A stretch of 64,000 nucleotides of DNA from an uncultured Gemmatimonadaceae bacterium (GCA_963716745.1 OY970320.1:768001-832000); one strand, 5' to 3'; counted from the first letter of the stretch, positions 35,227 to 52,943 are shown. The notes: a model not told the origin generated them from the sequence alone. Translations and numbers: made by a program.

Positions 35227-35266
35227 TCTCCCTATCCCTTTGCAGAATGTAAGAGGCGCGTCCTTC

Positions 35267-35734
35267 TCATCTCATTCCTCTCTCGAGTGCCGCGAGTCCC
35301 TTCTCCAATTCAGCGAGCAGCGCCAGGTTTAGCCGCAGGCCCTTCCGCGTCGGAGCGCGATCGTCCGAGTCCCCGGGTGCGAAATAGAGTCGGATATCGG
35401 CCTTCGCGGCGCCTTGCCAAAGTGCAATTCCGAATCTGATCTCCCGGCCGCCACTAAGCGGGATCTTGGCCACCGTGCACTCGCGATCGGTGCCCGCACT
35501 GCGCAGTTCCTGAATCGCGTCAATCGCGTCGGATATCCTCTCGATCGGTAGCGAAACTCCCTTGGGCGTTGCAACAAAGACATTCTCTCGCGTCAGCACA
35601 AATTCGCGGACATGCAAGAAGCACCTGCCTTGGTAGGCCTGAGACAAGACCCGTACTTCGAGCGCGGGCGTTATCAGGATTCTCGCCGCGAGGGTGTCGC
35701 AGCTCCGGTCGGTAGGACGATTTGACGTCATCAA
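35267..35734 (-). CDS. Tandem PC4/YdbC-like ssDNA-binding protein
   Basis: Two repeats: EVRV..YQGRCFLHVREF...TPKGVSL and EIRF..WQGAAKADIRLYF...PTRKGLRL. Confidence 0.8.
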   Translation of the reverse strand: MMTSNRPTDRSCDTLAARILITPALEVRVLSQAYQGRCFLHVREFVLTRENVFVATPKGVSLPIERISDAIDAIQELRSAGTDRECTVAKIPLSGGREIRFGIALWQGAAKADIRLYFAPGDSDDRAPTRKGLRLNLALLAELEKGLAALERGMR

Positions 35735-35753
35735 CCGATTACTAAGAGCGATC

Positions 35754-36776: not shown

Positions 36777-36834
36777 GTAGTGCCTCTGTAAGAGCGGACA
36801 TGGGTGCAATAGGCGCTGAGAAGTGCTTCTAACG

Positions 36835-37095
36835 TCATGAGGCCTTCGAAGGGTAAGTCAACTCCCATACTCCTTGCGGCGACAATGACGCGGAGCGGAG
36901 GACGCCGGCTAGCCGGAGCCAATGCGCGCTCCACCGGATATCGTACTGCCATGTAAAAAATAGCTCGCGCCTCAGGCGCAGCTCGTTCTCGTTCTGTTCC
37001 CAGACTGCCTCGCAAGCTTTCCCAATCGAAGCGGAACCGCCCGACGCCTTGAGAGCACTCACCAGCGCTCGGTCAAGGAATTCCTTGTCCGACAT
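36835..37095 (-). CDS. Stand-alone Mrr_N-like winged-helix protein
   Basis: ALKASGGSA...WQYDIRWSAHWLRLAGVL...GVWELT. Confidence 0.75.
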   Translation of the reverse strand: MSDKEFLDRALVSALKASGGSASIGKACEAVWEQNENELRLRRELFFTWQYDIRWSAHWLRLAGVLRSASLSPQGVWELTYPSKAS

Positions 37096-37156
37096 TGAGG
37101 AGCCCTGATTCACTTGGAGGGAACGGCTGAACGTCGCACCAGCGGCCGCCGAATAT

Positions 37157-38218
37157 TCATGTTACGCCAATGCTGCGAAGCTCCTGCATGAAGCGCACGA
37201 ATTTGCGGAGCGCTTCCAGATCGGATGGCTCAATGCCATCCGGATCAAAATGCATTACATCATTGCGAATCTTCTGGAGACGCCGAAGCTGGCCTACGAT
37301 CACGCCCCGGTCGACCTCCACACCCAAACGACTCCACCGTTCGGCATTGTCGAGTAGCCGAACATGCTCTCCAAAGGAAAGGTCAGCCGCCTTGCCAACC
37401 TCCCTTCTCTTGTCGGCGGGATCCTTTGCCGTCGCGAGTTCCGCAGGCGTGAACTTGCCTTGAACGAGGCGACGCATGTGACTCTCGATCTCACCCAACA
37501 GCAGAAACGGTTCCGTGAGTAGCTGGAATTGCAGGCTTAGATCACTCGTCGTAATGATTCCACAAATCCTATTCGTCGAATTCCGCACGAGCACATACTG
37601 ATGCGCGATAATGCTGTCGATTGCTGCGAAGAGAGATGCTTCCGAGGAGATCTCGGTGGCGTGTTCCATGCAATCCCGCACCACCTTGCACGGCCGCCCG
37701 AGAGCGACACGACCTCCAAGTGACTCCCAGCTAATTACTCCTTTCAGCTCTCTATCGCCCTGCATCACCGGCAGTTGCGAGTAGTCGTGAGAGAGCATTA
37801 GAGTGACAGCCTCGGCCAGTGGCGTGTCCTGGTGTACCGAGAGCGGTCGATGATTGGCCGAGGGAAGTCTCTTCACTCTGTAGGTCGGATCCGTCAGAAG
37901 ACCCGAACTCGCCTCCGCGGTTGTATCGGCCTGCTCATCCGCAATCGCAACTGTGACAGGCGAGCCTTCAACCGCCAATGTCGGCGCTAAGGAGACCGGT
38001 ACGAATGAAATAACGGAGTCAATGAAGACGCCTTCGAAGTCAGGCTCCGTTCGTACTCCGACCTTGTCCAGCGCGTTTCGGATGTTTTGGACGACATAGT
38101 ACCCGCGCCGCTCGGCGCCAAACCACTCCAGAAAGCCCTTCACCGTTGTCTGCTCTGGTGACCGTCCCGCTTGAAGATCCTTCGCGATCGCCTCCAATCT
38201 CGTAGGGAAATTCGTCAC
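37157..38218 (-). CDS. CBS-pair protein with C-terminal HEPN (Swt1-like) domain
   Basis: AVTLMLSHDYSQLPV..GVISW and GIITTSDL CBS motifs; EIESHMR and RNDVMH (Rx4H). Confidence 0.85.
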   Translation of the reverse strand: MTNFPTRLEAIAKDLQAGRSPEQTTVKGFLEWFGAERRGYYVVQNIRNALDKVGVRTEPDFEGVFIDSVISFVPVSLAPTLAVEGSPVTVAIADEQADTTAEASSGLLTDPTYRVKRLPSANHRPLSVHQDTPLAEAVTLMLSHDYSQLPVMQGDRELKGVISWESLGGRVALGRPCKVVRDCMEHATEISSEASLFAAIDSIIAHQYVLVRNSTNRICGIITTSDLSLQFQLLTEPFLLLGEIESHMRRLVQGKFTPAELATAKDPADKRREVGKAADLSFGEHVRLLDNAERWSRLGVEVDRGVIVGQLRRLQKIRNDVMHFDPDGIEPSDLEALRKFVRFMQELRSIGVT

Positions 38219-38998: not shown

Positions 38999-41900
38999 TC
39001 AGCATGTAGAGGTTCGCTCAGCATGTCGCGCCAATCTGCACATAAGATTGACCTGCCTCATCTCATCAACGCCCCTACATCGCCCTGCCATAAGCCCCGG
39101 TGATCCGAGCACCCCCGCTACCGCCTTCGCCCTACTCACCGCCACATTCATTCTGTTCGCACTCAGCAAGAACTCCGCCCCTCGAGGCGAGTCCTCGAGC
39201 GTCGATGAACACATCGACACGATGACCACCGGCGCCTCCTGACCCTGGAACTTGTCCACGGATCCCACTCGCACCGCCGGGTCCATCCGCCCGCGCAGAT
39301 TCCGCACCTGCATGTTGAACGGCGCAACGACTAATACGTCTTCCGTGGTCATTGCGCGAGCGGGTTTGTTTTCCACGGTCACGCTGCGCGCGAGCAGCTC
39401 CTTGACGAGCGGCACGATCGCGTCGGCCTCCTCGTCGCTGCTCTGGCTGTTTCCTTCGTGTTCCACCGGCATCCACACGATGCCGTGCTGGGTTCCAACG
39501 GCGTTCCCCTCGGTGCGCGTCGCGCTCTTGAGGCGGCCCTCATAAAATGCATCCGATATGAACGCGCACACGTCCGGGTGCATGCGGTAGCTCAGCCCCA
39601 GGAAGATCCCGAAGTCCGGCGGGATGGTCGCGTGACCGTTCAGCGCGTACTCCAGACAACTCATGCCGCTCTCGCCGGGGTGGGTGCCCTTGAGCGGCTG
39701 CGCGAGCTGCATCTGGTCGCCGATGAGCACGATGTTCTTCGCGCTCTGGCCCATCGCCACGGCGTTCGCGAGGCTCACCTGCCCCGCTTCGTCGATGAAC
39801 AGGTAGTCGAGCGAGCCAACGAGCGCTTCGCGGCTGAACAGCCACGCGGTGCCGCCGAGTACCCACGGCCCGGGGGTGCCGGCCAACTGGTCGGCGTCGC
39901 CGGACGCGGCGAGGTGGGTGATCCGCTCGTGAAGCTCTACGGTCTCGTCGCCGTCGCTGCCCACCTTGTAGAGCGCCGCGTTCCCGGGCGGGGCCGGATC
40001 GTTCTTCAGGATCGCGGCCATCACGTTGAGCACCACCTTGTGGCTGTTGGCGGCGATACCGACGCGCTTTCCGCGACGGAGCAGCTCGACGATCATGCTT
40101 GAAGCGGTGTAGGTCTTTCCAGTTCCTGGGGGGCCTTGAATGCAAAGTGTGCTGCCATCGAGTCTACAGACGATATCGATGGCGTCGCGTAGGAAGTTGG
40201 GACCGTCCTCAACGAGTGCTCCACCATCGTGGCCCTCTATCCGCGGCTTCCGGCGGAAGAGGAGATCATCAATGGCGGTGCATCGTTCATCGTGCGTCGT
40301 GCATTGTTGGGCGAACCGCACGAGGGATTCCTTGATCGGCTTCGCGCTCAGGTAGTCGTCGGGGATCAGGCTCAGGCGATCGGGGAGTTGCTTGTTCTTC
40401 GACAGCTTGAGCTCGAGCAGGCCGGCGTCCGCATCCAAGGTCACGATGCTGCACTTCGTGCGCCATTGGTCGGTCACGACCACCTTACAACCGGCGTGCA
40501 GCTTGGTATCGCTGTTGGGATCGAACGAGTATTCGTGCGCCAATGACTGTTTCTCGGGACGCGCCGCCTTCTTTGTGCGCACGAGGCCCGTGAGACAATC
40601 GAAATCTTCGCGCAGCTGCTCCTCGGTCTTCTCCAAACGGTCGAAATACTGCCACCACACCGGCTTCTCCTCGCGGCGGTGGTACTCCACGAGCCAGCCG
40701 ACGAGCGCGGTCACGCGCGCACGTTCTGGATCCTCTTCCTCCTCAGCCATCTCGGCGAGCTTGGCCGCAACCACGGCGCCCGGATCAGGCTCGCGCGGCG
40801 GACGGTCATCATCAGCGCCGGCAGGCTCAGTCGCCACCGGCGGCGCCGGATATTTCGCATCGAACTCCGCCTTCCGGTCCATGAGCCAGTCGCGCACGCC
40901 CACGGTGCTCTCGCAGTCCACGCGATTGTACTCGCGGATCTCGTTCAACCGCGCGCTCCCCGCCCAGCCCTGCGGCTCGCCGCTGTCGATCCACGCCTGG
41001 TAGGCCAGCACGGAATCGCCGGCGTTGGACACAGCCTGCTCGCGCGGCGGCATGTAGAGGCACTCGATGTCCTTCAGCGAATAACCGGTGGCCCCGATCG
41101 TCACGCCCTGACGCACGATGTTGTACAGGTCCACCAGCACTTCATTGCGCAGCAGATCGTCCACCTCGTTCTCGCGCGTGGCGTACTTGCCCATCAAACG
41201 GCGCAGCGCCGTTTTCTCGTACGCGGCGTAATGGTACACGTGCATCTCGGGATCCTGCTGCCAGCGCGCGTGCGCGAAATCGACGAAGCCCTCGAAGGCT
41301 TTTTTCTCCTGCTCGGGCGAATGCGCCCACCAGTCGTGGAATTTCGGTTTCCCGTCTTCGACAGTGACGGCGCCGAAGAGATACTCGAGGCCGCCGGGAT
41401 AGAACGGGAATCCTTCCATGTCGAAGAACACGTCCAGCGGCCGAGGCGGCGGCAGCAGCGCGAGCCCGCGCCCGGGGTCGTTGGGCGAGGGCGGGCGCAA
41501 TTCGAAGAGCGGTTTGTCGAGCTCGCGCGATGCCTGCTGCAGCGCCGCCTGCCGGCGGAGCTTCGTGAGCGTTTCGGGAGAGATTCGGGGAATGCCTACT
41601 ATTGTACTGTCGGCGAAGTCTTTGAGCGTGGTGATGCCCGCATCCTCGAGCCGGCGGATCTGCGTGCGCGTGATATTCGCGACGCGACTGAGATGGTCGC
41701 GCTCTTCCAGCAGCTGCTCGGCGAACGTGCTCCACTGGCCATAGCTGCGCTCGAGCCCGGGGTCGGGCATGTTGTCGCGGCGCCAATTCTTCTGGAACAC
41801 CAGGAACGCGTCGCGCTGCACCAGATAGTAGAAATAGAAATCGTCCGTCTTGAACGACTCTTCCGTGCTGTCGCCGAAGATGAACTTGATCTGCTTGGGC

Positions 41901-42415
41901 CGAACCCCCTGCATGGCCTCGAGCATGCCGGCGTAGCAGCAGAGCTGCACGATGAAGGCCGGCTTCGCCGAGCGCGCGAGTTTGACGTCGCGGGGCTCGT
42001 AGTGGTAGTCGCCGAGTTTCGAGGGGCCGGGGATTTTGTACAGGAGATCCGGATAGCCCTGCCAGTCGCCGTCGGTGAGGCAAGCTTGGTAGATCACATT
42101 CGCACCAGCGTGCATGGCGTCCAGCGTGTGGCGCGCGGCATGCTCGTCGTTGCGATCGATCTCCACGAGGTCCGGGATCTCGGCGCGCAGTTTGGCGAGG
42201 TGCCGCTTCTCGTGCTCATCGCCCATGCGCGCGGCGAGATCATCGCCGCCTTCGCGGACGTCGGGGGCGATCGAGATGCCGGCGGGGATTCCGGGAACGG
42301 CCGCGGCGCCGCCCTCGAACTTGGACCGCTCACACCAAGCCGAAAAATCGCCTTCGAGGAAAGCGAGAAGGTCCTTTGGCGAGAACTGCGTGCGGCCGTC
42401 GGGGAGTTTCTTCAC
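38999..42415 (-). CDS. TM0106-family RecB-like nuclease / RNase H-like / SF1 (Dna2/Nam7) helicase
   Basis: GYPDLL..DVKLA; FFDMEG..YNRVDC; GPPGTGKT, IDEAGQ, GDQMQL, YRMHP, VDKFQGQE, NVAVSRA; intact 1138 aa. Confidence 0.93.
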   Translation of the reverse strand: MKKLPDGRTQFSPKDLLAFLEGDFSAWCERSKFEGGAAAVPGIPAGISIAPDVREGGDDLAARMGDEHEKRHLAKLRAEIPDLVEIDRNDEHAARHTLDAMHAGANVIYQACLTDGDWQGYPDLLYKIPGPSKLGDYHYEPRDVKLARSAKPAFIVQLCCYAGMLEAMQGVRPKQIKFIFGDSTEESFKTDDFYFYYLVQRDAFLVFQKNWRRDNMPDPGLERSYGQWSTFAEQLLEERDHLSRVANITRTQIRRLEDAGITTLKDFADSTIVGIPRISPETLTKLRRQAALQQASRELDKPLFELRPPSPNDPGRGLALLPPPRPLDVFFDMEGFPFYPGGLEYLFGAVTVEDGKPKFHDWWAHSPEQEKKAFEGFVDFAHARWQQDPEMHVYHYAAYEKTALRRLMGKYATRENEVDDLLRNEVLVDLYNIVRQGVTIGATGYSLKDIECLYMPPREQAVSNAGDSVLAYQAWIDSGEPQGWAGSARLNEIREYNRVDCESTVGVRDWLMDRKAEFDAKYPAPPVATEPAGADDDRPPREPDPGAVVAAKLAEMAEEEEDPERARVTALVGWLVEYHRREEKPVWWQYFDRLEKTEEQLREDFDCLTGLVRTKKAARPEKQSLAHEYSFDPNSDTKLHAGCKVVVTDQWRTKCSIVTLDADAGLLELKLSKNKQLPDRLSLIPDDYLSAKPIKESLVRFAQQCTTHDERCTAIDDLLFRRKPRIEGHDGGALVEDGPNFLRDAIDIVCRLDGSTLCIQGPPGTGKTYTASSMIVELLRRGKRVGIAANSHKVVLNVMAAILKNDPAPPGNAALYKVGSDGDETVELHERITHLAASGDADQLAGTPGPWVLGGTAWLFSREALVGSLDYLFIDEAGQVSLANAVAMGQSAKNIVLIGDQMQLAQPLKGTHPGESGMSCLEYALNGHATIPPDFGIFLGLSYRMHPDVCAFISDAFYEGRLKSATRTEGNAVGTQHGIVWMPVEHEGNSQSSDEEADAIVPLVKELLARSVTVENKPARAMTTEDVLVVAPFNMQVRNLRGRMDPAVRVGSVDKFQGQEAPVVIVSMCSSTLEDSPRGAEFLLSANRMNVAVSRAKAVAGVLGSPGLMAGRCRGVDEMRQVNLMCRLARHAERTSTC

Positions 42416-43104
42416 TCGGATACGTCGTCCTCGCCATAAGGCCGCGGCTCAATGCGAACCCCCAGCTTGAGGAGGTCGCACGTCCACTGAAAGCAAGTGA
42501 CAGCGACAGGTGAGGAAAATACCTGCGTGTCGTCCGCCATTGGGCTGTCGAGGAGTCCGATGAACCCGACCTCCTCTCCGCTATCGGGATCGAGCCACGG
42601 CATGTACGGCTCGCATTCAGTCACGGCCGCGCGCGCTATAGCGTACGCGGGATTCAAACGGCGACAGATCGAAAGCACCTGCTCAGGATCGTCGATCTCG
42701 ATGATCTCATCGACGCTCCGCTTTTCACCAAGCCAGCGCTTCAGCACCTTGGCATCTCCCTTCACGGGGCCGCCGTAGATCCTCGCGAATGTTCGTTCCG
42801 TGAGCGCCGAGCCGCCGCGTTGGCTGACGCGATCGCGCAGCGCCTCAGTGGCTGCCTTTCCGAGCACGCGCTCCATTCGATCAATGTGCGCGCCCTCATT
42901 TCCGTCCGCGAGTTCCTCGCGCAGCCATTGGAGCATGCGGCCGCGTGTAAGCCGGGCGATCTCCATATCCGGGGCACTGAGGCGGTACTCGGCGCCCTCT
43001 TCGAGGTATGTGGCGGTCACGAAACTGTCGGACTTCTTCGCGGCCGTGAGTCTGCGGAGGAGCGGGCGCGCGTGCTCGTCGGCGTACGCGATCGCCTCAC
43101 GCAT
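42412..43104 (-). CDS. Hypothetical protein coupled to the TM0106 gene
   Basis: 230-aa ORF with GTGA overlap. Confidence 0.7.
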   Translation of the reverse strand: MREAIAYADEHARPLLRRLTAAKKSDSFVTATYLEEGAEYRLSAPDMEIARLTRGRMLQWLREELADGNEGAHIDRMERVLGKAATEALRDRVSQRGGSALTERTFARIYGGPVKGDAKVLKRWLGEKRSVDEIIEIDDPEQVLSICRRLNPAYAIARAAVTECEPYMPWLDPDSGEEVGFIGLLDSPMADDTQVFSSPVAVTCFQWTCDLLKLGVRIEPRPYGEDDVSE

Positions 43105-43179
43105 GCGAGCGGGAGGATGATCGGGGGCTCATAGTTCCACGGGCGAAACGTCTGCTCGTTCAAAGGCGCCTTCCGAAGA

Positions 43180-43374
43180 TCATGTGCCGTACGCCTCCCG
43201 CGGCGGCACGAGCCGCAAGATCGGCGCACCACAGAAAGTCTCCACCAGATTGTTCTCGGCGCGCGGAGGCGTCGGAACTTTCAGGTAGAACTTCTGCGGG
43301 CAGTAGGTCGGCTCCCGCCCGTTCACGTAGCGGCGGCCGCACTTTGGGCACTCCCACGAGAAGCGGTTCGACAT
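43180..43374 (-). CDS. Stand-alone Cys4 zinc-finger protein (paralogue 3)
   Basis: WECPKCGRRYVNGREPTYC-x22-CGAPIL, homologous to the N-termini of the next two genes. Confidence 0.8.
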   Translation of the reverse strand: MSNRFSWECPKCGRRYVNGREPTYCPQKFYLKVPTPPRAENNLVETFCGAPILRLVPPREAYGT

Positions 43375-43380
43375 GCAAGG

Positions 43381-43402
43381 AATCTGCACCCTGGGTCTGA
43401 CA
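43381..43402 (-). promoter_or_regulatory. PafBC-type leaderless promoter
   Basis: TGTCAG-ACCCAGGGTG-CAGATT-6 nt-ATG. Confidence 0.72.
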
Positions 43403-43446
43403 GTGGTGAGGTCTCGGCAATTGCTGCCGCCGGTAGTCGGGAACGC

Positions 43447-44136
43447 CTAAGTCTGCCTCACTCTTCCGTCTGCTCCAGCGCCGCCTTCGGGTCCATTCCT
43501 TCGTAGATCACCTTCATCAGTCGGTCGAACTCCAGAGTCGGCCAGACAGAAGCTCGCGTTGATCACGTTATTGACCATCTGCTCGGTGAGCACGCAGTCG
43601 TCGACATCGATCCCGGTGCGGTAACGCACGAGGCCTTCCTCGAAGTCGAAATCGAAGCCGCCGACGATCGCGGCCCAGTTCGCTCGCGTGACGTACTCCG
43701 CAACGGCCGGCCGCCGCACGGGCGGCACTTTGAGCGCCAGCATCGCGCGCGCAATGACCTGTCGCTCCTCTTCGCGCGCCGTGACAATGACGCGGAGCGT
43801 CGAGTGCCTTCCGTTCAGCGTGAACTCCACGCTCTCATACTCAGGCAAGACCAAATGAGGCCAACCGCGGCCCTGCACCGCGCTGACCGCTATCGCCAAC
43901 AGGGAGCCGTCGGGCGCTGTCCCGCCCCCGCTCGCTTTTTCCTCGAATGGCTCGGCTGGCCGCGCGAGGGGCAGGATCGGCGCGCCGCACCGCGTGGCGA
44001 GCAGCCCGGTGGCAGCGTCGGCCCGCGGATGCGCCGGCGCGTGCAGTGAGAGTTGCTCCTCGCAGTACGTCGGCTCCTCACCGTTCACGTACTTCTTGCC
44101 GCACTTGGGGCACTGCCAGCTGTAGACAGTTTGCAT
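43447..44136 (-). CDS. Cys4 zinc finger + YbjN domain protein (paralogue 2; 3' frameshift)
   Basis: WQCPKCGKKYVNGEEPTYC..RCGAPIL; KVPPVRRPAVAEYVTRANW..GGFDFDFEEGLVRYRTGID. Confidence 0.85.
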   Translation of the reverse strand: MQTVYSWQCPKCGKKYVNGEEPTYCEEQLSLHAPAHPRADAATGLLATRCGAPILPLARPAEPFEEKASGGGTAPDGSLLAIAVSAVQGRGWPHLVLPEYESVEFTLNGRHSTLRVIVTAREEERQVIARAMLALKVPPVRRPAVAEYVTRANWAAIVGGFDFDFEEGLVRYRTGIDVDDCVLTEQMVNNVINASFCLADSGVRPTDEGDLRRNGPEGGAGADGRVRQT

Positions 44137-44142
44137 GCTATG

Positions 44143-44163
44143 AGTGTGCAAAGGGTTGCGACA
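44143..44163 (-). promoter_or_regulatory. PafBC-type leaderless promoter (9-nt spacer)
   Basis: TGTCGC-AACCCTTTG-CACACT-6 nt-ATG. Confidence 0.6.
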
Positions 44164-44886
44164 TCACTTCTCCGGCCGCTCCAGAGCCGCCTTCGGCTCC
44201 TCGCCGCCGTAGATCACCTGCATCAAGCGGTCGTGGTAGATGTCCGCCATGTACGAGGTCATCCCGAACAGAGTGTCGACCATCTTCTCGGTGAGCGTGC
44301 CGCCCTCCACATCAATGCCGCAGCGGAAGCGCACACTGCCGTTCTCGAAGTCGAGATCGAAGGCGCCAGTGAAACACCTGTAGTTCACGCGCGCGATGAA
44401 CTCCGCGGCGGCCGGCCGGCGTTCTGGAGGCACCTTGAGCGCCAGATAAGAGGACACGATGACCTGTTGTTCGGGTTCGCGCGCGGTGACGACGACGCGG
44501 ACCGTCGTGCGCTTGCAGGCGAGCGAGAATTCCACTGCAGGGAATTCAGCGTACCGCGCGAAATTCCACTTGCACGCGCGAATGGTGCTGACCACCGTGG
44601 CCATGATCGGACCGTCGGGCGCTCTCTCCTCTTCGCTGATTCTCTCCTCGTTGGGATCGCAGGCGTCAATGCTATCGGACATGTCCGGCGACTCCTCCCG
44701 CGCCGCTTCCGGCGCCTCAAGCGGCAGGATCGGCGCGCCACAGCGCGTCTCCACGAGCCCGCTCTCGTCCGCGAGCGGATGCCCGGGCGTCTTCAGGAAG
44801 AACGACTGCTCGCAGTACGTGGGCTCTTTCCCGTTCACGTATTTCTTGCCGCACTTGGGGCACTGCCAGCTGTAGACGGTTTGCAT
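44164..44886 (-). CDS. Cys4 zinc finger + YbjN domain protein (paralogue 1)
   Basis: Same finger; KVPPERRPAAAEFIARVNY..GAFDLDFENGSVRFRCGID..LMQVIYGGEEP. Confidence 0.88.
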   Translation of the reverse strand: MQTVYSWQCPKCGKKYVNGKEPTYCEQSFFLKTPGHPLADESGLVETRCGAPILPLEAPEAAREESPDMSDSIDACDPNEERISEEERAPDGPIMATVVSTIRACKWNFARYAEFPAVEFSLACKRTTVRVVVTAREPEQQVIVSSYLALKVPPERRPAAAEFIARVNYRCFTGAFDLDFENGSVRFRCGIDVEGGTLTEKMVDTLFGMTSYMADIYHDRLMQVIYGGEEPKAALERPEK

Positions 44887-44892
44887 GAACTG

Positions 44893-44914
44893 AATGTGCG
44901 AGGGGGGTGTGACA
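44893..44914 (-). promoter_or_regulatory. PafBC-type leaderless promoter
   Basis: TGTCAC-ACCCCCCTCG-CACATT-6 nt-ATG. Confidence 0.72.
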
Positions 44915-44917
44915 TTG

Positions 44918-45025
44918 AACTACGCGGGAAGCGGGAAGCGCTGCGGGATGCGCCAACTGCGCGAGGGCCCCACGCGCCGTTCATGCTCAACGCGGCGCTT
45001 CCCGCTTCCCGCTTCCCGCGTAGTT
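44918..45025. repeat. Family B heptamer (CGGGAAG/CGGGACT) inverted repeat, copy 1
   Basis: AACTACGCGGGAAGCGGGAAGCG...CGCTTCCCGCTTCCCGCGTAGTT. Confidence 0.9.
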
Positions 45026-46173
45026 CAAGAAGCCTGCGCCTGGAATGACCGCCGCAGCGCCTCCTTCGCCCAAGTGATCTGCTGCGCCTTTTCAGTGAAG
45101 AGTTTCTGCAGCCGCGGATCCAGCCCCGCGCGATCCGGATGGCACGCCGCGATTATCGTGCGATATGCGCGCTCGATCTCGCCGTAGCTCGCGGTAGAAG
45201 AAACACCGAGCAGGATGCGCGCCTTCTCGAGATCCTCCCGAATCCGCTGCTGGCGGCGGGCGCGCGGGTCATCCTGATGCTGCTGACTCCCTTTCGCGCG
45301 CGCCTCGTTCGTTCGCGCCTCCCTCCGCGCCTCCTCGGCGCCACTCGTGCCGCGAGCGGCGTAGGCGATCTCCTTGAACAATTCCGTGATGTCATGCCCC
45401 GAGAAGTCGAGCGATTTCGCCACCAGGTGGACGGCCGCGGACATTTCCGCCGTGAGCGGGCCATCGGCGAGCGCGAGATTTCGGATGAGTCGCGCATACG
45501 GCGCGCGCTCGGCTGGCGACAACGAGCACACCGGATAGACAATGGTGCGCTTCACAAAGAGGATCTCGCGGATACGCTTCTCGCTGAGTTTCCCCTTGAA
45601 CGCGTCGCATAGGTAGACGACAGCGATCTCGTGGGCCTTGGGCGCGCAGCATGACTCGGCCCACACCAACGTCGCACAAACGAAGGCCGCAACGTCCAGC
45701 CATGCGCGCTCGCGAGGAACGAGACCGTCGGCGTCGAGCCGAACGGTGTTCGGATCCAGACCGGCCTGGTGGATGAGCGACTCCACGGTCTCCTGGCGAG
45801 CCGGCCGCGACAGCTCCCGGAGATCGCGTACGGCGTAATAGGGCGCCGCAAAGAGGCCGCCAATGCTGCCAAGTCCCGTGAACGCCGCGCGAGCGATGCC
45901 CCTCCTCGATGCGCGTCGCACGCACTTCGAGCAGCCGGCGACGACCCGGGAATCAAGGGAAGTGAACCACCCGCGCCCACGGATCACGCGCAGCACGCGC
46001 GCCTCCTGCATGTGCGCCTTGCCGCAGATGGGACACGGTACGTCGTAGCCGTACAGCGGCGGGGGCGGAGGTGCGGCGCGAGGCGCCGCGTTCCGCGACG
46101 CGGAACTCTCCTTCGCCACGCGGAACATGGCCCGGATGATCATGAATGCGATAACTGCGCCAGCATTACCCAT
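45025..46173 (-). CDS. Membrane protein: Zn ribbon + TerB-like + C-terminal J domain (DjlA-like)
   Basis: CPIC..CSKC, TM segment, LALADGPLT..E, ILLGVS..EIERAYR..CHPDR..KAQQITWAKEAL; GGAGG RBS. Confidence 0.82.
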   Translation of the reverse strand: MGNAGAVIAFMIIRAMFRVAKESSASRNAAPRAAPPPPPLYGYDVPCPICGKAHMQEARVLRVIRGRGWFTSLDSRVVAGCSKCVRRASRRGIARAAFTGLGSIGGLFAAPYYAVRDLRELSRPARQETVESLIHQAGLDPNTVRLDADGLVPRERAWLDVAAFVCATLVWAESCCAPKAHEIAVVYLCDAFKGKLSEKRIREILFVKRTIVYPVCSLSPAERAPYARLIRNLALADGPLTAEMSAAVHLVAKSLDFSGHDITELFKEIAYAARGTSGAEEARREARTNEARAKGSQQHQDDPRARRQQRIREDLEKARILLGVSSTASYGEIERAYRTIIAACHPDRAGLDPRLQKLFTEKAQQITWAKEALRRSFQAQAS

Positions 46174-46201
46174 GACTTGAGCCTCCCGGATTGTTGATCG
46201 C

Positions 46202-46223
46202 AATCTGGGAGGGGGGTGTGACA
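46202..46223 (-). promoter_or_regulatory. PafBC-type promoter
   Basis: TGTCAC-ACCCCCCTCC-CAGATT. Confidence 0.72.
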
Positions 46224-46320
46224 GCCTACTCTCGCCGGCTTCCCGGTGTTCGGTTATTCGCTGCTGACACCGGGATATTGCATATTCTGGCGGCCAACAA
46301 TTCGAGGAATCGCGAAGGGC

Positions 46321-47997
46321 ATGACTGAAAACGATCAGGAAAGCGAAACGGGCCCCGCATGGGAACTCGCACGCGCGCTCAAGTCGTTCGGCGAGGCTGA
46401 TGACTCGTCGGCACTCGAGGAGCTTCGCCCAGCATATGCCGCAGCCGAGGCGGCGACGACCGAGCGCGAGCGCCTCGACGTGCTGATTGCAGTCATTGGT
46501 GCGGCGGAACGCCAGCATATTCGCGGTGATGCCCTGCTCCCTTTCCTCCTCTTCGATGGCTCGCCTTCCGTTATCTCGACCGCCGCGCTCCACTCCGTCC
46601 CCGTGTGGCCGGGTGTCTCCGACGAATCACCGCTCCGCGGCGTCGAGGAGTTGCTTCGCCTCGCCGACATCGCGGTCGAGCAAGGCGACGAACCACGCGC
46701 AGTAGCCATTGTGAGCGGAATGCTCCTGCTGGGGGACCGGCGCGTTGCTCAAGCGCTCCGCAATGTGCAACGTCATTTCACCGCGGCCGGGCAGACACTG
46801 CTCGCACGGCTCGGCGGCGTCGCCGCATATGCAACGGTTATCGACTGGCTCATCGACTGGCTTGAAGACTGCGAGCGGAACGAGTTCGGATCGGTCGCCG
46901 GGGCATTGTCTCGTTTCTCGGATCAGGCGAGGAAGGACGGTGTGATCGAAACGAGACGTGCATTGCCCATCTGGTCGCGTCCGCTGGAGGAGGCATCGAT
47001 ACACGTCGGCGAGTGGACTTTCGAGGAGTTCGCGAAGCGCATTCGGCCGCGCCTCCTGCAGATCGCCGCCGATGAAGCCGCACCCCGCATCATGCACAAT
47101 GTGCTCAAGGCCTGGGGCATTTCGCACACGAATCGCTGGGTGACCGGCATCCATCGCCGGCCGGCTGTGAGCGACGCATCGCAGCGGCCCCTGTTGCCAC
47201 AACTGCCACCCGGGACATCCACGGGAGAATTATTCGAACCCATCGAGCTCAAGGATGCGGATTTCGTCGCGCGCGACGGCACGATCCTGATCGGCTGGGC
47301 GATCTTCAATCCCAACGGCCCGACGTTCAGTTGTGTCGGCCTACTGCCGACGGAGGACCCCGAAGTCGATCTGCTATTCTACCGCATGCTCAACCCATTC
47401 ATGCAGAGCTCGTGCACGTTCGCGGCGTTGCGTGGCAGCGAGCGCGACTCTGGCGAGATGCTCGAGCGACTTCTCGCTCCGTTGTTCGGCCGGAATCACA
47501 TTGGCGCTGAGAACTGGAGCTACCCGTTGTTCGGCGGCCTCCCCACCGTCGCCTTCGTCGTCGGCAGCGACGAGGCAAGAGACGCGATTGCAGGCTGGTT
47601 CTGGAGCAACGTCGCACTCGCGGAGGAAGACTTCGTGACGGCCTCCTGGCGGATGCGAGCATTTCCGCTAAGTCCCTGGGAGCGCGTGGGGGCCGAGCGC
47701 GACGAGGCATTGGCTTCGATGACCGATGATGGCCTTCTCGCGATCCCCCGCACCGGTGGCCCGGCGACGCCGGAGGAGTTCACCGACTGGTGGAGTCTCG
47801 TCACATCGGCGGACACCCTCTACTCGGAGTTCTACTGTATTCCTGGCGCGTGGTTTGGAGCGATCGACCATGCGCCGGGCGCGTTGGGGGCCAGCGACGA
47901 CTATACGTTCTGGCAGCTTGATGATTTCGTGGCGCGTTACGGGGTGACGTTGTTCCGGAACTTGGCAGCGACAGCGGACGGCGAGGCAGACTCTTAG
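46321..47997 (+). CDS. Large hypothetical protein (helical-repeat-like N-half)
   Basis: 558-aa intact ORF divergent from the J-domain gene; no family recognised. Confidence 0.75.
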   Translation: MTENDQESETGPAWELARALKSFGEADDSSALEELRPAYAAAEAATTERERLDVLIAVIGAAERQHIRGDALLPFLLFDGSPSVISTAALHSVPVWPGVSDESPLRGVEELLRLADIAVEQGDEPRAVAIVSGMLLLGDRRVAQALRNVQRHFTAAGQTLLARLGGVAAYATVIDWLIDWLEDCERNEFGSVAGALSRFSDQARKDGVIETRRALPIWSRPLEEASIHVGEWTFEEFAKRIRPRLLQIAADEAAPRIMHNVLKAWGISHTNRWVTGIHRRPAVSDASQRPLLPQLPPGTSTGELFEPIELKDADFVARDGTILIGWAIFNPNGPTFSCVGLLPTEDPEVDLLFYRMLNPFMQSSCTFAALRGSERDSGEMLERLLAPLFGRNHIGAENWSYPLFGGLPTVAFVVGSDEARDAIAGWFWSNVALAEEDFVTASWRMRAFPLSPWERVGAERDEALASMTDDGLLAIPRTGGPATPEEFTDWWSLVTSADTLYSEFYCIPGAWFGAIDHAPGALGASDDYTFWQLDDFVARYGVTLFRNLAATADGEADS

Positions 47998-48061
47998 CGA
48001 GGGTCAGAGGCTTCGAGCGGCGCCATCTGCGAACCGAACGAGAATCCTCGTCAGGCCGCGC

Positions 48062-48091
48062 TTGACGATGATATATACCTATCTGTATACT
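48062..48091 (+). promoter_or_regulatory. Sigma70-type promoter with TATAC-N6-GTATA operator
   Basis: TTGACG-N18-TATACT with a short palindrome in the spacer, upstream of the antitoxin gene. Confidence 0.6.
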
Positions 48092-48117
48092 GCGGGCACC
48101 ATGGTCTCGAGGCGCCA

Positions 48118-48516
48118 ATGGCACTGAAGGTAACGCACGGCAGCGGCAACATCTTCGTTGATGTCGGCTTTTCGCGGCCGCAGGCCGCGGTCATGCTGCT
48201 GCGCTTTGAGCTTGCGCTCGCGATTGAACAAATCATACAGTCTCGCGGATTGACGCAAGTACGCGCCGCCAGGCTGTTCGGCGTGAGTCAGCCCCGCGTC
48301 AGCAATGTGGTGCGCGGCAAGATCGATCGCTTCAGCATCGACACTCTGGTCGAAATGATCGGTCGCGCAGGAGCGCACGTCACGATCTCGGTGTGGCGGA
48401 CGCGGAGATTGCGCGTGACGATTCTGCCGCGCAGAACACCGCCTCGAGTGCGCGAGATGACTGAACTGCGCGGGAAGGGGGGCGCGGGACGCGCCCCGCG
48501 TACTAAGGAGCGCTGA
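48118..48516 (+). CDS. Orphan HigA-like XRE antitoxin (HTH_37)
   Basis: GSGNIFVDVGF..LTQVRAARLFGVSQPRVSNVVRGKIDRFSIDTL; no toxin gene upstream. Confidence 0.88.
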   Translation: MALKVTHGSGNIFVDVGFSRPQAAVMLLRFELALAIEQIIQSRGLTQVRAARLFGVSQPRVSNVVRGKIDRFSIDTLVEMIGRAGAHVTISVWRTRRLRVTILPRRTPPRVREMTELRGKGGAGRAPRTKER

Positions 48517-49464
48517 TCTCCCTCAGCCTCTTCGCGATCTCCCGGCGCACGGACTCCGGCTCCAGCACCACCGCATCCACGCCGTATTGAAGCACATGCC
48601 TCACAGCCCACCGCGCGTCCGCCAACGGATGCTCCATAATAAGCGAGCCGTCTCTTGCGAGCGGCAGCCCCTCTCGCTCCGCGATCCACCGCGCGATCTT
48701 CGCGCTGTAGCGCACCTTTAGCGTTTCGGGCTCCTCGGCGTGGAAGATCTTGCCGCCAGCGGCGATCGCGTCGAGTGAGAACTCAACTGGCACCTCGTAC
48801 GGCTCGTTGGTGGGAGACGCGCTCTCGATGCGGTCGAGCCGGAAGATCCTAATGGACGCACGCTCATAACAATGCGCGACGATATACCACGCCCCGTTCG
48901 CGGCGATTAGGCCATAAGGACCGATCAGGCGGGCTTTTGATTCCGTCGCGTCGGCACTGCGATACATGATCTTCACCTTCTTGTGCGCCCGCATCGCGCC
49001 GCGAACGGCGGCGAGATGACCGCCGTCGCCGGCGCCGCCGAGCTCGGCGTGGCGGCCCGCGTTCGAAAGCTCGCTCTGAGCGGCAATTTGCCCAGTGCCT
49101 GGCGCAATCGTTTGCGCGCCCCGTCTATTGCGCGATGCTGATTGGGTGGCCGTTCGCGCCGCAACATCGCCAGTCCAAGATCCAGCGCGCAAAGTTCCGG
49201 TGCGGTGAGACGCATGGGCCGGGCGAAATGACTGGCCCGCATCTGCACGCTTTCGGTTGAGCTCTCGATGAGCACGTGCAGGCCGGGGACGAATCCGCCG
49301 GGGTCGCCGAATCGCTCGCTGAGCGAATAGAGGTCGCCGAGTATCGTGTCCACGTCCGTGCCGGCGAGCTTGGCGACTCTCGTGAGTTGATGCGCTTTGC
49401 CGTCGGCCAGGCGCGGGATGAGCTGCAGCAGCCGCCGGAGCTGGACGGACGCCTCTTCGCTCAT
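48503..49464 (-). CDS. pafC: PafC-like HTH-WYL-WCX regulator (frameshift near 49070)
   Basis: QLRRLLQLIPRL..FARPMRLTAPE..L; YRSA..RLIGPYGL....WYIVAHC..RIFRLDRI; VLQYG..VLEPESVR. Confidence 0.85.
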
Positions 49465-50590
49465 CGCGCGCCCTCCATGGCGGCGAGCGTCTCGCGCGCG
49501 AGCGATACGGAATTTCGCGACGAACGGCTTCGGTTCCACCGGCACGGCGTCGCCGCCGAACGACAGCAACCAGCGCGCGAAGTGATCGGGCCGCCGCACA
49601 TGGAACACGCGCTTCCCCGCTCCGCCGCGCACCGGCGTGCCCAGCTTCGCCGCGGCGCGCACGGCGCCGGTATCGCCGCGGAAATCGACGGTCACCTGGA
49701 TCTCTTCTTCGTCGCCGAGATTCCATGACTCGCGCGAACGGCTCTCGGCGGCAAGGTCGAATGTGGAGGGGATCGCGTAGTCCGCGCTGCCGGCGCGCTT
49801 CTTGTTCACTTCCACGCTCGACATTCGGCTCAGCCGGAAATTGCGCATCTCCTCCTTGCCGCGGTCGCGCGCGACCAAGTACCAATGCGCGCCGAGGAAC
49901 ACGAGGCCGTACGGTTCCGCCTCGCGCGCGGCCGATTTGCCCGTTTGCATCGTGAGGTAGTTGAACGTCACGATCTTCTTGTCCAGCAGCGCGGCGCCGA
50001 GTTTCGCGAACACTTTCGCGTCCACGCGCTCGGCGACAACGTGCTCGCCGCTCCCAGCGGGCTGCGTGGCGTCCACCGGGAGATCGAACGCGAGTTTTCG
50101 CATGGCGCTCTCGGCGTCTGCGCCGAGCATGGGATCGCCGAGCGATCGCGACGCGGGCGGCGGCGCTGCCGACGGCCTCGAGCTCATCGGGCTCGAACGC
50201 GAGCGTCGCGAGCGAGCGATAGCCCGGGGGTCCGATGCGCGGGCGCGCGGAGTGCCCGCTCGCGACTACTTGAATGAAGGGGAGATAGAAATCGTCGTGG
50301 CGCAGGCGGTAGGCGTCCTTCTCATCTTCGCCTTTGCCTTTGATCGTCTCGATCGCGACGCCGAAGGCGCGCAACTCATCCTTGTCGCGCTCGAACATTC
50401 GCTCGAGCGTCGCGGCGTTGGCGCCGGCGCCGTAGCCGGGAACATCCCGTCGCAGTTCGGCAAAGGACACCGGCATTCGATGCGCCAGCAGCGCGGCAAG
50501 GAGATCGATCCAGCGTTGCAGCTTGGGCGTGCGCTCGGCTCCGCGGGTCGCGGCCTTCTTCTTGGCAGGCGGCTTCTTGCGTGGAGGCAT
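49461..50590 (-). CDS. pafB: PafB-like HTH-WYL-WCX regulator (frameshifts near 50150 and 49505)
   Basis: KLQRWIDLLAALL..VPGY..LERMFERDKDELRAFGV; REAEPYGL..HWYLVARDR..RNFRLSRM; ATGA-coupled to pafC. Confidence 0.87.
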
Positions 50591-50599
50591 GGTTCGCAG

Positions 50600-50628
50600 A
50601 GTGTGCCCCATCGTGGGGGTGAACGCAA
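50600..50628 (-). promoter_or_regulatory. Conventional -35/-10 promoter of the pafBC-like operon
   Basis: TTGCGT-N17-CACACT. Confidence 0.5.
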
Positions 50629-50658
50629 GGAGGCGCGATGAGCACGAGCTTGCTTAGT

Positions 50659-50765
50659 GCGCGGGAAGCGGGAAGCGGGAATCGCCGCGGGATGCGTGAA
50701 CAGCGCGAGGGGCCATCGCGCCCTTCTCGCATCCCGCGGCGCGTCCCGCTTCCCGCGTCCCGCGC
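50659..50765. repeat. Family B inverted repeat, copy 2
   Basis: GCGGGAAGCGGGAAGCGGGAATCGCCGCGGGATGCG...CGCATCCCGCGGCGCGTCCCGC. Confidence 0.9.
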
Positions 50766-50774
50766 CTGAAGTAG

Positions 50775-51258
50775 CTAGTGGTTCAGGATGAACGTCGTTG
50801 GATACGACAACACGACCGAACTGCAATTCGCAGCATAGACGTCCACTGGCCCCGTGATGGTCATGCGCTGGTTGGCCGTGTCGTAAGTGCCGGAGAATGT
50901 CTCCGAGAAACTCGGACACAGATCCTGAGTGCACGGTGATATTGACCGAGGGATTCGTTCCCGCGGCGATGTTTCCCGCGAGCGTCCCGGTGCCGGAGAT
51001 GGCGACCGTGTTGACGCCATCCGTAAGCTCTCCCGTGAGTGCGTAACTACCACTCAGCGTCGGGCCATTCTGTCCGACCGTCACCGTGAATTCCGCGATG
51101 ATGGCCACGCCCTGGTCCACGCCGGACATTGGCCCGCTGTACGAACCCGAAACGTCGTTGTAACTCGGCGGCGGAGCCGTGGTGCCCCCGCCTCCGCCGC
51201 TGCATGCGGACGCGAGGATGACGAGGAACGGAACGAAAGCTGCTGTTCTGACGCGCAT
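50775..51258 (-). CDS. Beta-rich lipoprotein (frameshift near 50925)
   Basis: Lipobox LASAC; C-terminus CPSFSETFSGTYD..FILNH in a second frame. Confidence 0.75.
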
Positions 51259-51290
51259 GATTCCCTCTCGAGTGTGAAGCGTGAGAGGGA

Positions 51291-51312
51291 ATCATTGAGC
51301 GGGGGTGTGACA
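51291..51312 (-). promoter_or_regulatory. PafBC-type promoter
   Basis: TGTCAC-ACCCCCGCTC-AATGAT. Confidence 0.6.
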
Positions 51313-51319
51313 CTCATTG

Positions 51320-51427
51320 AACGACGCGGGAAGCGGGAAGCGGGAAGCGCCGCGGGATGCGAGAAATGCGCGCTGGCCCCTCGCGCCCTACTCGCATCCC
51401 GCGGCGCTTCCCGCTTCCCGCTTCCCG
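51320..51427. repeat. Family B inverted repeat, copy 3
   Basis: (CGGGAAG)3 CGCCGCGGGATGCG ... CGCATCCCGCGGCG (CTTCCCG)3. Confidence 0.9.
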
Positions 51428-51512
51428 AGCCCTCCCCCCGGCTTGACCCGACTGGCACACGGAGCGGAACACTCACGATGGATCCGAGTAGTCCGCCACT
51501 AAGGGGCAATGA

Positions 51513-52173
51513 TCACTCAGCGCGCGCCAATCCCGATAGGCGCCGACGCGCACGCGAGCCGGCCGCCCCCAGTCGCGCGGCACGAAGCAGATAATCGATG
51601 TGATACGGCCGATGCTCGTGATGATAGAAATAGTGCGTGTGCCGGGTCTCTTTCCCGTGCTTCTCGCGAAAGTACGTGTGATATGCGCTCGCGAGTCCGT
51701 GCGCCGCGAGCTTCTCGATGAGATCGCCCTGACTCTGCCCCGGCGGATGCTCGGCGTCCCAGATCACGTTCGCGTTGAAATCGCCGAGCACCACAGAGTG
51801 CTCGTGCTGCGCGATCACGGGGCCATAGAGCTCGATCGCGCGATTGAGTCCGCGCACGTAGCGGAACTTGCGCTCGAAATTAGTGGTCCACACCGCGAGC
51901 ATGAGGAACGACCGCGGCCCCGAGACTCGCACCGGCACCGTCCACCGCGGCACGCTCGGCCGCTTCCGCACCGGCGCGAACTCGTAGCCGTTCCGCGCGA
52001 TGACGGTGATCCCCTTCTTCTTCGGATCGCCGCCGTACCAGCGGTACGTCGCGCTGTCGGGCGCCTCGCGACGCAGCTCTTGCAGCACGGCAATGTCGGG
52101 CTGCAATGCCTCGACTGCTGCAGCGCTTCTCGGCTGAACGGCCGAATGAGCAATTCCAGGTGAGGAGACGCAT
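51513..52173 (-). CDS. Endonuclease/exonuclease/phosphatase (EEP) family protein (frameshifted, 3' end uncertain)
   Basis: MRLLTWN, PDIAVLQE, VVLGDFNAN, YHIDY. Confidence 0.85.
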
Positions 52174-52179
52174 TCCCTA

Positions 52180-52291
52180 AACTACGCGGGAAGCGGGAAT
52201 CGGGACTCGCCGCGGGATGTGCGGGAAGCGATCGTGGAGCAACGCGCAGTTCTCGCATCCCGCGGCGAGTCCCGCGTCCCGCGTCCCGAAC
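52180..52291. repeat. Family B inverted repeat, copy 4
   Basis: AACTACGCGGGAAGCGGGAATCGGGACTCGCCGCGGG ... CCCGCGGCGAGTCCCG. Confidence 0.9.
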
Positions 52292-52833: not shown

Positions 52834-52943
52834 GTTCGGGATTCGGGACTCGGGACTCGCCGCGGGATTCGGGATGCGCCATGGGCTCACCGCGCCTTTC
52901 TCGCTTCCCGCGGCGAGTCCCGAGTCCCGAGTCCCGCGTAGTT
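52834..52943. repeat. Family B inverted repeat, copy 5
   Basis: GTTCGGGATTCGGGACTCGGGACTCGCCGCGGG ... AGTCCCGCGTAGTT. Confidence 0.9.

Follow-up and report, generated by a model that had tools for sequence, protein, structure and literature searches.

A probable counterpart of the actinobacterial PafB/PafC activator, with a compact set of target promoters, in a Gemmatimonadaceae genome

We analysed a 64,000-nucleotide stretch of DNA from an uncultured soil bacterium of the Gemmatimonadaceae (GCA_963716745.1 OY970320.1:768001-832000), a family of the little-studied phylum Gemmatimonadota, referred to here as the window, in which two adjoining genes for WYL-domain regulators lie among minus-strand genes whose starts share one promoter geometry. 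With a probability that we put at roughly 0.8, the pair is a genuine equivalent of PafB/PafC, the heterodimeric WYL activator of actinobacteria, and the promoters around it form a compact target set that is mostly local. Four observations carry this reading: the orthology of the pair, a promoter grammar with strict phasing, the tendency of the motif to occur across the phylum in the same genomes as pafC and close to it, and the recurrence of the same target families. From these we infer that the pair may sense single-stranded DNA (ssDNA), activate rather than repress transcription, work by sigma adaptation, and have a role in DNA-break processing and/or antiphage defence. The genome to which the window belongs (G000, with the window at G000:C1:768001-832000) is a single contig of 3.29 Mb and 67% GC that groups among Gemmatimonadota genomes, and the locus is 95% identical at the protein level in another uncultured Gemmatimonadaceae metagenome-assembled genome (MAG). 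An earlier note, made from the sequence alone, had judged the genome probably non-actinobacterial, and its source, a Gemmatimonadaceae MAG, bears this out.

RESULTS

The WYL pair is a sequence-level ortholog of PafB/PafC

The regulators and their own promoter are as follows (HTH, helix-turn-helix; wHTH, winged HTH).
49462..50590, minus strand: pafB-like gene (wHTH-WYL-WCX); Pfam WYL and WCX, N-terminal PDB matches.
48503..49464, minus strand: pafC-like gene (PafC-type HTH, WYL, WCX); Pfam, PDB 6sj9.
50600..50628, minus strand: predicted sigma-70-like pafBC promoter, TTGCGT (50628-50623)-N17-CACACT (50605-50600); from sequence, identical in the close relative G002.

Both products carry WYL and WCX domains, and the second adds HTH_PafC (PF19187) at 47.1 bits against a Pfam cut-off of 32. 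The HTH of PafB has no Pfam match, yet it aligns to the PafB HTH of 7p5x_AY and 9fnd_X; at E<0.01 the N-terminal 133 amino acids find in the PDB only PafB of M. smegmatis (9fnd_X, 4.9e-12; 7p5x_AY, 8.3e-12) and PafBC of A. aurescens (1.9e-5). In a gap-free alignment, R64 and R68 of the window's PafB fall on R46 and R50 of the mycobacterial PafB chain, the residues reported to read two guanines of the GTC triplet (PMC8635444). The middle segment of the pair, which covers the WYL domain of PafB and runs on into the HTH of PafC, matches 6sj9 at 4.8e-24, and the pafC product matches residues 492-651 of the same entry with an E of 2e-21, while chains of the BrxR/CapW type are far weaker (7qfz, 1.2e-4; 7tzv, 2.4e-3). 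Six residues of the PafB WYL domain are described as abolishing ssDNA binding when mutated, namely, R181, Y196, R204, R208, R211, and R214 (PMC11804915); in the alignment to 7p5x_AY, R181, Y196, R208, R211, and R214 are identical here and R204 is replaced by K. The HTH_PafC match, the PDB matches, and the kept arginines uphold the description of the genes in the earlier note as a pafB/pafC-like pair rather than generic WYL regulators, and at the level of sequence the pair is an ortholog of PafB/PafC.

Five gene starts around the pair share one promoter geometry

The candidate promoter boxes and the genes behind them are listed below (ORF, open reading frame; ZnF, zinc finger).
46202..46223, minus strand: box 1, TGTCAC-ACCCCCCTCC-CAGATT, followed by a 28-nucleotide leader with GGGAGG and then ATG at 46173.
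44893..44914, minus strand: box 2, TGTCAC-ACCCCCCTCG-CACATT-cagttc-ATG; kept in G002.
44143..44163, minus strand: box 3, TGTCGC-AACCCTTTG(N9)-CACACT-catagc-ATG.
43381..43402, minus strand: box 4, TGTCAG-ACCCAGGGTG-CAGATT-ccttgc-ATG.
51291..51312, minus strand: box 5 (weaker), TGTCAC-ACCCCCGCTC-AATGAT, before the lipoprotein gene.
50775..51258, minus strand: lipoprotein gene (signal peptide and Cys), by sequence reading.
45025..46173, minus strand: Zn-ribbon/membrane/J-domain protein of 382 aa with a DjlA-like C terminus; Pfam DnaJ, E 7e-7.
44164..44886, minus strand: ZnF-YbjN protein copy 1, 240 aa; Pfam YbjN, E 9e-10.
43458..44136, minus strand: ZnF-YbjN protein copy 2 (YbjN2); Pfam YbjN.
38999..43374, minus strand: operon of three ORFs behind box 4.
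43180-43374, minus strand: ZnF-only ORF, a third ZnF relative and the first gene of that operon.
42412-43104, minus strand: 230-aa protein of the same operon, without family.
38999-42415, minus strand: 1138-aa TM0106-type RecB-like nuclease fused to a superfamily 1 (SF1) helicase; NCBIfam TIGR03491 at 228.6 bits (cut-off 97.45), Pfam RNase_H_2, AAA_11, and AAA_12.

Boxes 1 to 4 have the common form TGTC(A/G)(C/G)-N9/10-CAnA(C/T)T. The geometry that had been claimed for five minus-strand starts agrees with the sequence, four of the sites being clear and the fifth (51312) weaker because the first base of its -10 is A; the spacing of box 5 also differs by 1 nucleotide in G002. A minus-strand reading likewise confirms that the -10 elements of boxes 2, 3, and 4 end exactly 6 nucleotides before the ATG, so that the transcripts are predicted to be leaderless, and the ordinary promoter assigned to pafBC lies as claimed, 9 nucleotides before the ATG at 50590. 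A simple consensus scan of the minus strand from 42900 to 51600 found no sigma-70-like promoter, which leaves the five genes without an obvious ordinary one. The 22-mer of box 1 is identical in G002, G224, and G237. In box 4, TGTCAG and CAGATT are kept between G000 and G002, with 5 of the 10 spacer bases and 5 of the 6 bases before the ATG differing. The three YbjN/ZnF promoters are paralogous, as the caveat about a single duplication had warned; in them conservation is limited to the TGTC core and the -10, and the spacer and the 6 nucleotides before the ATG have diverged.

Pfam and NCBIfam detected no TerB domain in the product of the gene behind box 1, which had been read as a ZnR-TerB-J protein; the J domain of that reading is supported by Pfam DnaJ, and the NCBIfam DjlA match is below threshold (56.8 bits, cut-off 162). 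Separately, the leader of the lipoprotein gene (51262-51290) holds an inverted repeat, CCCTCTC-N13-GAGAGGG, that is kept in G002; the Shine-Dalgarno region, 5 nucleotides before the ATG, forms its 3' arm, and translation may therefore be controlled through sequestration of the ribosome site.

The box follows pafC through the Gemmatimonadota

Among 301 Gemmatimonadota genomes, PF19187 was found in 83 (PafC+) and was absent from 218 (PafC-). Up to 20 kb was fetched around 40 PafC-HTH hits from other genomes, the loci being chosen only by the PafC HTH, and in these 40 loci the motif recurs as TGTCA(C/G)ACCCC-N6-(T/C)AnnnT. In a register test of the half-site TGTC[AG][CG]A[CG][CG], 39 of 124 occurrences had A at +18 and T at +22, and shifts of 1 to 3 nucleotides gave 0 to 6. 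Matches to a strict pattern, TGTCASACC-N7-YANNNT, were then tallied across the 301 genomes.
PafC+, 83 genomes: mean strict hits 1.82; reversed-pattern control 0.34.
PafC-, 218 genomes: mean strict hits 0.46; reversed-pattern control 0.33.

At least two strict hits were present in 42 of 83 PafC+ genomes versus 21 of 218 PafC- genomes, and the contrast is seen in each block taken alone (own family, same order, and same class). The hits are also placed near the regulator: of the 100 hits listed, from 39 PafC+ genomes, 41 are on the same contig as PafC and no more than 20 kb from it. These come from 26 of the 39 genomes, and the 40-kb span is roughly 1% of such a genome. Two genomes flagged as unpublished are included in the tallies, G086 in that of the strict pattern and G012 in that of the helicase homologues given below, and no individual claim rests on them. 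By the register, profile, and co-location tests, then, the promoter grammar is conserved across the phylum and is tied to the presence and position of pafC.

The pattern also matches a near-invariant 22-mer, TGTCAGACCT(G/A)TTAGATAT(T/C)(C/T)T, that occurs once per genome in genus g23 (G027, G129, G091, G203, G083, and G075) regardless of PafC; it looks like a separate conserved promoter or element that fits the pattern by chance.

Similar target families recur behind boxes in other genomes

The 22 proteins behind boxes in PafC loci comprise five WYL proteins (pafB itself), four vWA proteins, three AddB-like PDDEXK_1 nucleases, three proteins without family, and one each of RecC, a RecD-like helicase, an RNase_T exonuclease, ARPP-1, an ADP-ribosylglycohydrolase, HD_4, and an outer-membrane beta-barrel protein (OMP). 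With two further cases, pafB stands behind a box in seven cases in all in other Gemmatimonadota. Strict hits outside PafC loci, from five PafC+ genomes, precede 15 proteins: HNH_2, an AddB-like PDDEXK_1 nuclease, Cas4-Cas1, Cas_GSU0053, NUDIX, TY-Chap3 (YbjN-like), AAA, two Ig-like lipoproteins, and six without family. No AddB-like PDDEXK_1 protein was found in G000 itself. A homologue of the window's lipoprotein (59% identity, locus L061) lies behind TGTCACACGCCCCCCGTACCGT, and a YbjN homologue (39% identity, locus L059) lies behind TGTCAG-N10-GATATT; both are in other families, and they lend support to the weak fifth site. A tblastn search of 60 fetched loci at 1e-5 gave no match for the J-domain, 230-aa, 559-aa, ZnF-only ORF, 197-aa, or DS-11 proteins.

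The nuclease-helicase had been placed in the regulon by read-through; it is instead a member of the box 4 operon, and a box of its own precedes it in G002 and in several other genomes. Homologues are present in 30 of the 301 genomes, 19 of them PafC+, and 18 of the 30 loci, those in which the N terminus was covered, were examined, with the unpublished G012 left out. A clear box stands within 250 nucleotides upstream of 7 of the 12 homologues in PafC+ genomes; a further 2 show a CGTC-core variant recognized by eye, 1 case is doubtful, and the last 2 lack a box. In PafC- genomes, 3 of the 6 homologues are preceded by a box, and in one of these genomes (G180) a WYL gene cut by the contig end adjoins the helicase.

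In one genome (G170:C72; L085 and L086), a type I-U-like leaderless Cas4-Cas1 fusion and Cas_GSU0053 stand directly behind boxes, and in another (G089:C156; L090) a partial Cas4-like ORF does so. The position of boxes before Cas genes suggests damage- or ssDNA-induced acquisition of spacers.

In the source genome the boxes are essentially confined to the locus

The strict pattern has three matches in G000, all at the locus, and the reversed pattern has none. Likewise, TGTCACACCCC occurs four times in 3.29 Mb, three of them at the locus, and on a 14-point consensus score a value of at least 13 is reached by six sites, against one in the reversed genome, with four of the six at the locus. The predicted regulon of G000 is small and local. 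It may be LexA-independent, as the earlier note had proposed; lexA is present in G000, with no box found upstream of it. In the motif scan that the earlier note had proposed, neither enrichment of the loose pattern in the source genome nor a box before recA was found, and the strict pattern did track PafC across the 301 genomes. The sole other intergenic box-like sites in G000 lie at C1:3185256 (+) and 1424154 (+), with the sequences TGTCACACTCCTTTGATAGCGT and TGTCAGAGCCTTGCGATATGGT.

The frameshifts in the locus are probably assembly errors

As read, pafB, pafC, the lipoprotein gene, and YbjN2 are frameshifted in G000. Apparent 1-nucleotide insertions lie at ~50149 and ~49505 in pafB and at ~50921 in the lipoprotein gene, an apparent 2-nucleotide insertion lies at ~49074-49077 in pafC, and the frame of YbjN2 apparently changes near 43540; once repaired, pafB ends in a stop that overlaps the start of pafC (ATGA). 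These frame changes, and a GC content of 64% at the locus versus 67% in the genome, are what would be expected if the lineage had a real regulon that has died out in this strain, with genuine frameshifts, a regulator reduced to a pseudogene, and boxes that are relics. Three lines of evidence make that account unlikely, although we regard it as the most probable of the alternatives considered here. First, over pafBC the 94.6%-identical G002 has neither the indel at 50149 nor the pafC 2-nucleotide insertion and carries single-base indels of its own at other places in the same genes (~50448 and ~49467). Second, contigs from independent public DNA runs do not have the extra bases at 50149 (4/4), at 50921 or 50923 (4/4), or at 49074 (2/2 covering runs, X1 and X4), although the contigs of these four runs (shares 0.05-0.10), being 90-99% alike, come from relatives and not from the same strain. 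Third, G000 is only 89.8% complete in spite of being one contig, and congeners in few contigs reach 63-83%, low values that fit consensus indel errors. We conclude that assembly errors probably account for the frame changes in pafB, pafC, and the lipoprotein gene. G000 and its congeners appear to be riddled with indels of 1 to 2 nucleotides, and ORF-based annotation of G000 will therefore split many genes.

Neighbouring features

The remaining features of the window near the pair are these, beginning with a lower-GC defence island (31172-38218, 55-60% GC) directly downstream of the helicase-nuclease (REP/MITE, repetitive extragenic palindromic/miniature inverted-repeat transposable element).
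37157-38218: DS-11 CBS antiphage protein, 376 bits (cut-off 260).
35754-36809: PDC-M38A-like protein, defence island.
32857-35226: MORC-like ATPase (HATPase_c_3), defence island.
31172-32860: Mrr_cat+ResIII type IV restriction enzyme, defence island.
46318-47997, plus strand: 559-aa protein encoded between the J-domain gene and pafC, unmatched in Pfam, NCBIfam, and PADLOC.
44915-45029, 50660-50764, 51317-51427, 52180-52288, 52844-52943, and from 56917: palindromic REP/MITE-like element of ~110 nucleotides (TGAACTACGCGGGAAGCGGGAAGCG...CGCTTCCCGCTTCCCGCGTAGTTCA).

PADLOC matched the helicase partially to MkoA/MkoC helicase domains and the WYL genes to WYL models, and it gave no match for the YbjN, J-domain, 230-aa, 559-aa, or 197-aa proteins; no Rfam family reached its gathering score between 42000 and 53000. 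The entire segment from 46225 to 48495 is missing from G002, in which the box of the J-domain gene adjoins a REP element. The REP-like element, with a predicted hairpin of -78 kcal/mol, is present in ~46 copies in G000, six of them within the window, and is frequent in G002 too; around pafBC the copies are placed between transcription units, and they may be bidirectional terminators or insulators.

DISCUSSION

In the mechanism that we propose for the PafB/PafC counterpart, ssDNA from damage or from the processing of foreign DNA would bind the WYL/WCX tunnel of the heterodimer. The target promoters would lack a -35 and instead carry the TGTCA[C/G]ACCCC element, with GTC at about -26 and 10 nucleotides (once 9) upstream of a -10 of the form (C/T)AnnnT; the PafB HTH would read the GTC, and the PafC HTH would stand in for the -35 contact of sigma region 4, as the term sigma adaptation implies. 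Co-induced products would be the ZnF-YbjN paralogues, the J-domain membrane protein, the lipoprotein, and an operon ending in the TM0106 nuclease-helicase.

Several results weigh against this reading or limit its reach. The loose form of the motif, TGTCRS-N9/10-YANNNT, has 202 matches in G000, 51 of them in crude intergenic DNA, and is not enriched over 11 permuted cores, so that nothing points to a large regulon in that genome; the coding mask was a rough one, for which alone our own ORF-based gene caller served, as it mis-called parts of the lower-GC locus (for example, antisense ORFs in the J-domain gene). The region upstream of recA has a normal promoter (TTGACG-N17-TACTTT) and no box, and the regulon is therefore not the master DNA-damage regulon of mycobacteria. 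The -10 hexamers here begin with C (CAGATT, CACATT, and CACACT) and not with T. On the protein side, the N terminus of PafC aligns only to 6sj9, weakly (E 0.039), which gives no reliable mapping of the sigma-contact acidic residue D62, and no Pup ligase (PF03136) was found in the window or in the 89.8%-complete G000. In actinobacteria, pafBC is typically linked to pafA or the Pup-proteasome locus, a trait that does not define the mechanism. The published assays, as described in PMC8635444 and PMC11804915, had RbpA and CarD added, which are actinobacterial factors. The frameshifts described above belong here as well. Across the phylum, at least one strict hit is present in 70 of the 218 PafC- genomes, and p-values for the contrast between PafC+ and PafC- genomes are optimistic, as related genomes are non-independent. 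Finally, boxes (TGTCAGACCCCCGCGCCATGTT in G112:C27, L118, and TGTCGCAGGGGATCGGTACCTT in G039:C12, L106) precede TM0106 helicase homologues in two genomes in which no WYL domain was found, both 98% complete; the correlation is thus not perfect, and either the boxes may be orphans or the assembly may lack the regulator.

Other explanations of the same boxes can be set against this evidence. The WYL pair might be a repressor of the BrxR/CapW type that controls the adjoining defence genes, the TGTC element being its operator over constitutive promoters; the defence island next to the locus (DS-11 CBS, Mrr+ResIII, PDC-M38A, and the MORC-like ATPase) is consistent with such a role, and WYL repressors of defence systems are documented (PMC9122601, PMC11662680). 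We consider this improbable. The pair consists of two distinct subunits and not a single homodimer gene, and its likeness to BrxR/CapW-type chains is slight beside that to PafBC, with the GTC-reading arginines kept; the element, moreover, is not a palindrome and keeps a fixed register with the -10, and there is no -35 element to carry basal transcription.

The motif might alternatively be the promoter of an alternative sigma factor of the extracytoplasmic function (ECF) type, or the site of another regulator that travels with pafBC. Its bipartite form and the boxes in G039 and G112, where neither WYL nor PafC was found, would suit this explanation. The -35 and -10 elements of ECF sigma promoters are ~16-17 nucleotides apart, and by that rule the 10-nucleotide gap (once 9) between the hexamers is too short for such a pair. 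The downstream half resembles a housekeeping -10 with a YAnnnT anchor, the enrichment follows the presence and position of PafC, and the grammar is that of the published PafBC consensus, and we therefore rate this explanation as slightly less credible still. That the cluster reflects chance and gene duplication without regulatory meaning, for which it can be said that three of the five sites precede paralogues and that the loose pattern is unenriched in G000, is hardly tenable when the core and -10 were kept while spacers diverged, the motif stands before non-homologous genes in distant genomes, and the register test gave 39 against 0 to 6.

The PafB/PafC counterpart described here is best compared with the actinobacterial systems themselves, namely, PafB and PafC of M. 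smegmatis (7P5X, 9FND) and the fused PafBC of A. aurescens (6SJ9), which act at RecA-NDp or -26-element promoters. Both have adjacent wHTH-WYL-WCX paralogues, the second with a PafC-type HTH; both keep the GTC-reading arginines and the ssDNA-binding WYL residues; both have a 22-nucleotide grammar, TGTCnn-N10-(T/C)AnnnT, without a -35, for which the mycobacterial consensus is given as tGTCgg(N10)tA(N3)T (PMC8635444); and both have DNA-break-processing nucleases among their targets, in Gemmatimonadota as in actinobacteria. There are also differences. No Pup ligase was found here and hence no proteasome linkage; the regulon is small and arranged around the regulator, whereas the actinobacterial one holds ~150 genes; recA is absent from the targets in G000; the upstream element is longer and C-rich (TGTCACACCCC), and the -10 often starts with C; and the Gemmatimonadota targets include YbjN/TY-Chap, vWA, TM0106 nuclease-helicase, and Cas4-Cas1 proteins, with pafB itself often boxed.

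Other WYL regulators share parts of this design. SiwR of M. smegmatis is likewise described as an activator of adjacent genes that depends on the -26 region, but it is an actinobacterial homodimer that uses an imperfect palindrome with a GGA triplet and serves a single operon of DinB-like genes (PMC10693628). DdaA of Moraxellaceae, which joins the DNA-damage response to antiphage systems including CRISPR-Cas, is the nearest functional parallel for the mixture of repair and defence seen here, but it is a single protein with a motif ~50 bp upstream from the point where transcription starts, its authors consider that it probably does not act by sigma adaptation, and it has taken the place of SOS (PMC12392091), while G000 has both lexA and recA. 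DriD of Caulobacter, as described, is also a WYL activator that responds to ssDNA in an SOS-independent manner; it differs in being a homodimer with another target site, and it gives no match to the PafB N terminus at E<0.01. BrxR and CapW share the wHTH-WYL-WCX architecture and adjoin defence genes but are homodimeric repressors with inverted-repeat operators and a much weaker sequence likeness.

The occurrence of PafBC-like HTH-WYL-WCX proteins in several phyla was reported by Müller et al. in 2019 (PMC6789036), and the protein family was therefore already known outside Actinobacteria. The accounts in PMC8635444 and PMC11804915 present PafBC sigma adaptation as a mycobacterial or actinobacterial mechanism, and our literature search found no paper that joins "PafBC" with "Gemmatimonad", the papers it found on sigma adaptation and WYL proteins being concerned with mycobacteria, Moraxellaceae, the DNA-damage responses of bacteria at large, or a methylation switch; a conserved PafBC promoter grammar and regulon in another phylum thus appear to be new to print. 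The findings suggest that the PafBC mode of gene switching is not confined to mycobacteria and their relatives.

A wider proposition, to which we give even odds, is that PafBC-type sigma adaptation is a cross-phylum mechanism that also works with a Gram-negative-type RNA polymerase and that the Gemmatimonadota would use it to connect the sensing of ssDNA with a module that is portable and complete in itself. In this module, DNA-end-processing nucleases (AddB/RecC-type and the TM0106 nuclease-helicase), the CRISPR adaptation genes Cas4-Cas1, and uncharacterised YbjN/TY-Chap, vWA, and J-domain proteins would be co-induced, in effect an inducible combined island of repair and immunity that often includes positive autoregulation of pafB.

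A conserved PafBC box that accompanies pafC in a phylum remote from Actinobacteria would widen the taxonomic range of the mechanism and would supply natural, divergent promoters and regulators from which the essential contacts could be found, which should be of interest to those who study WYL regulators and transcription initiation. It also names new target families (ZnF-YbjN, TM0106 nuclease-helicase, vWA, and Cas4-Cas1) whose induction by damage or phage can be tested, and it provides a sequence rule, TGTCA(C/G)ACCCC-N6-(C/T)AnnnT, by which such regulons may be annotated in metagenomes.

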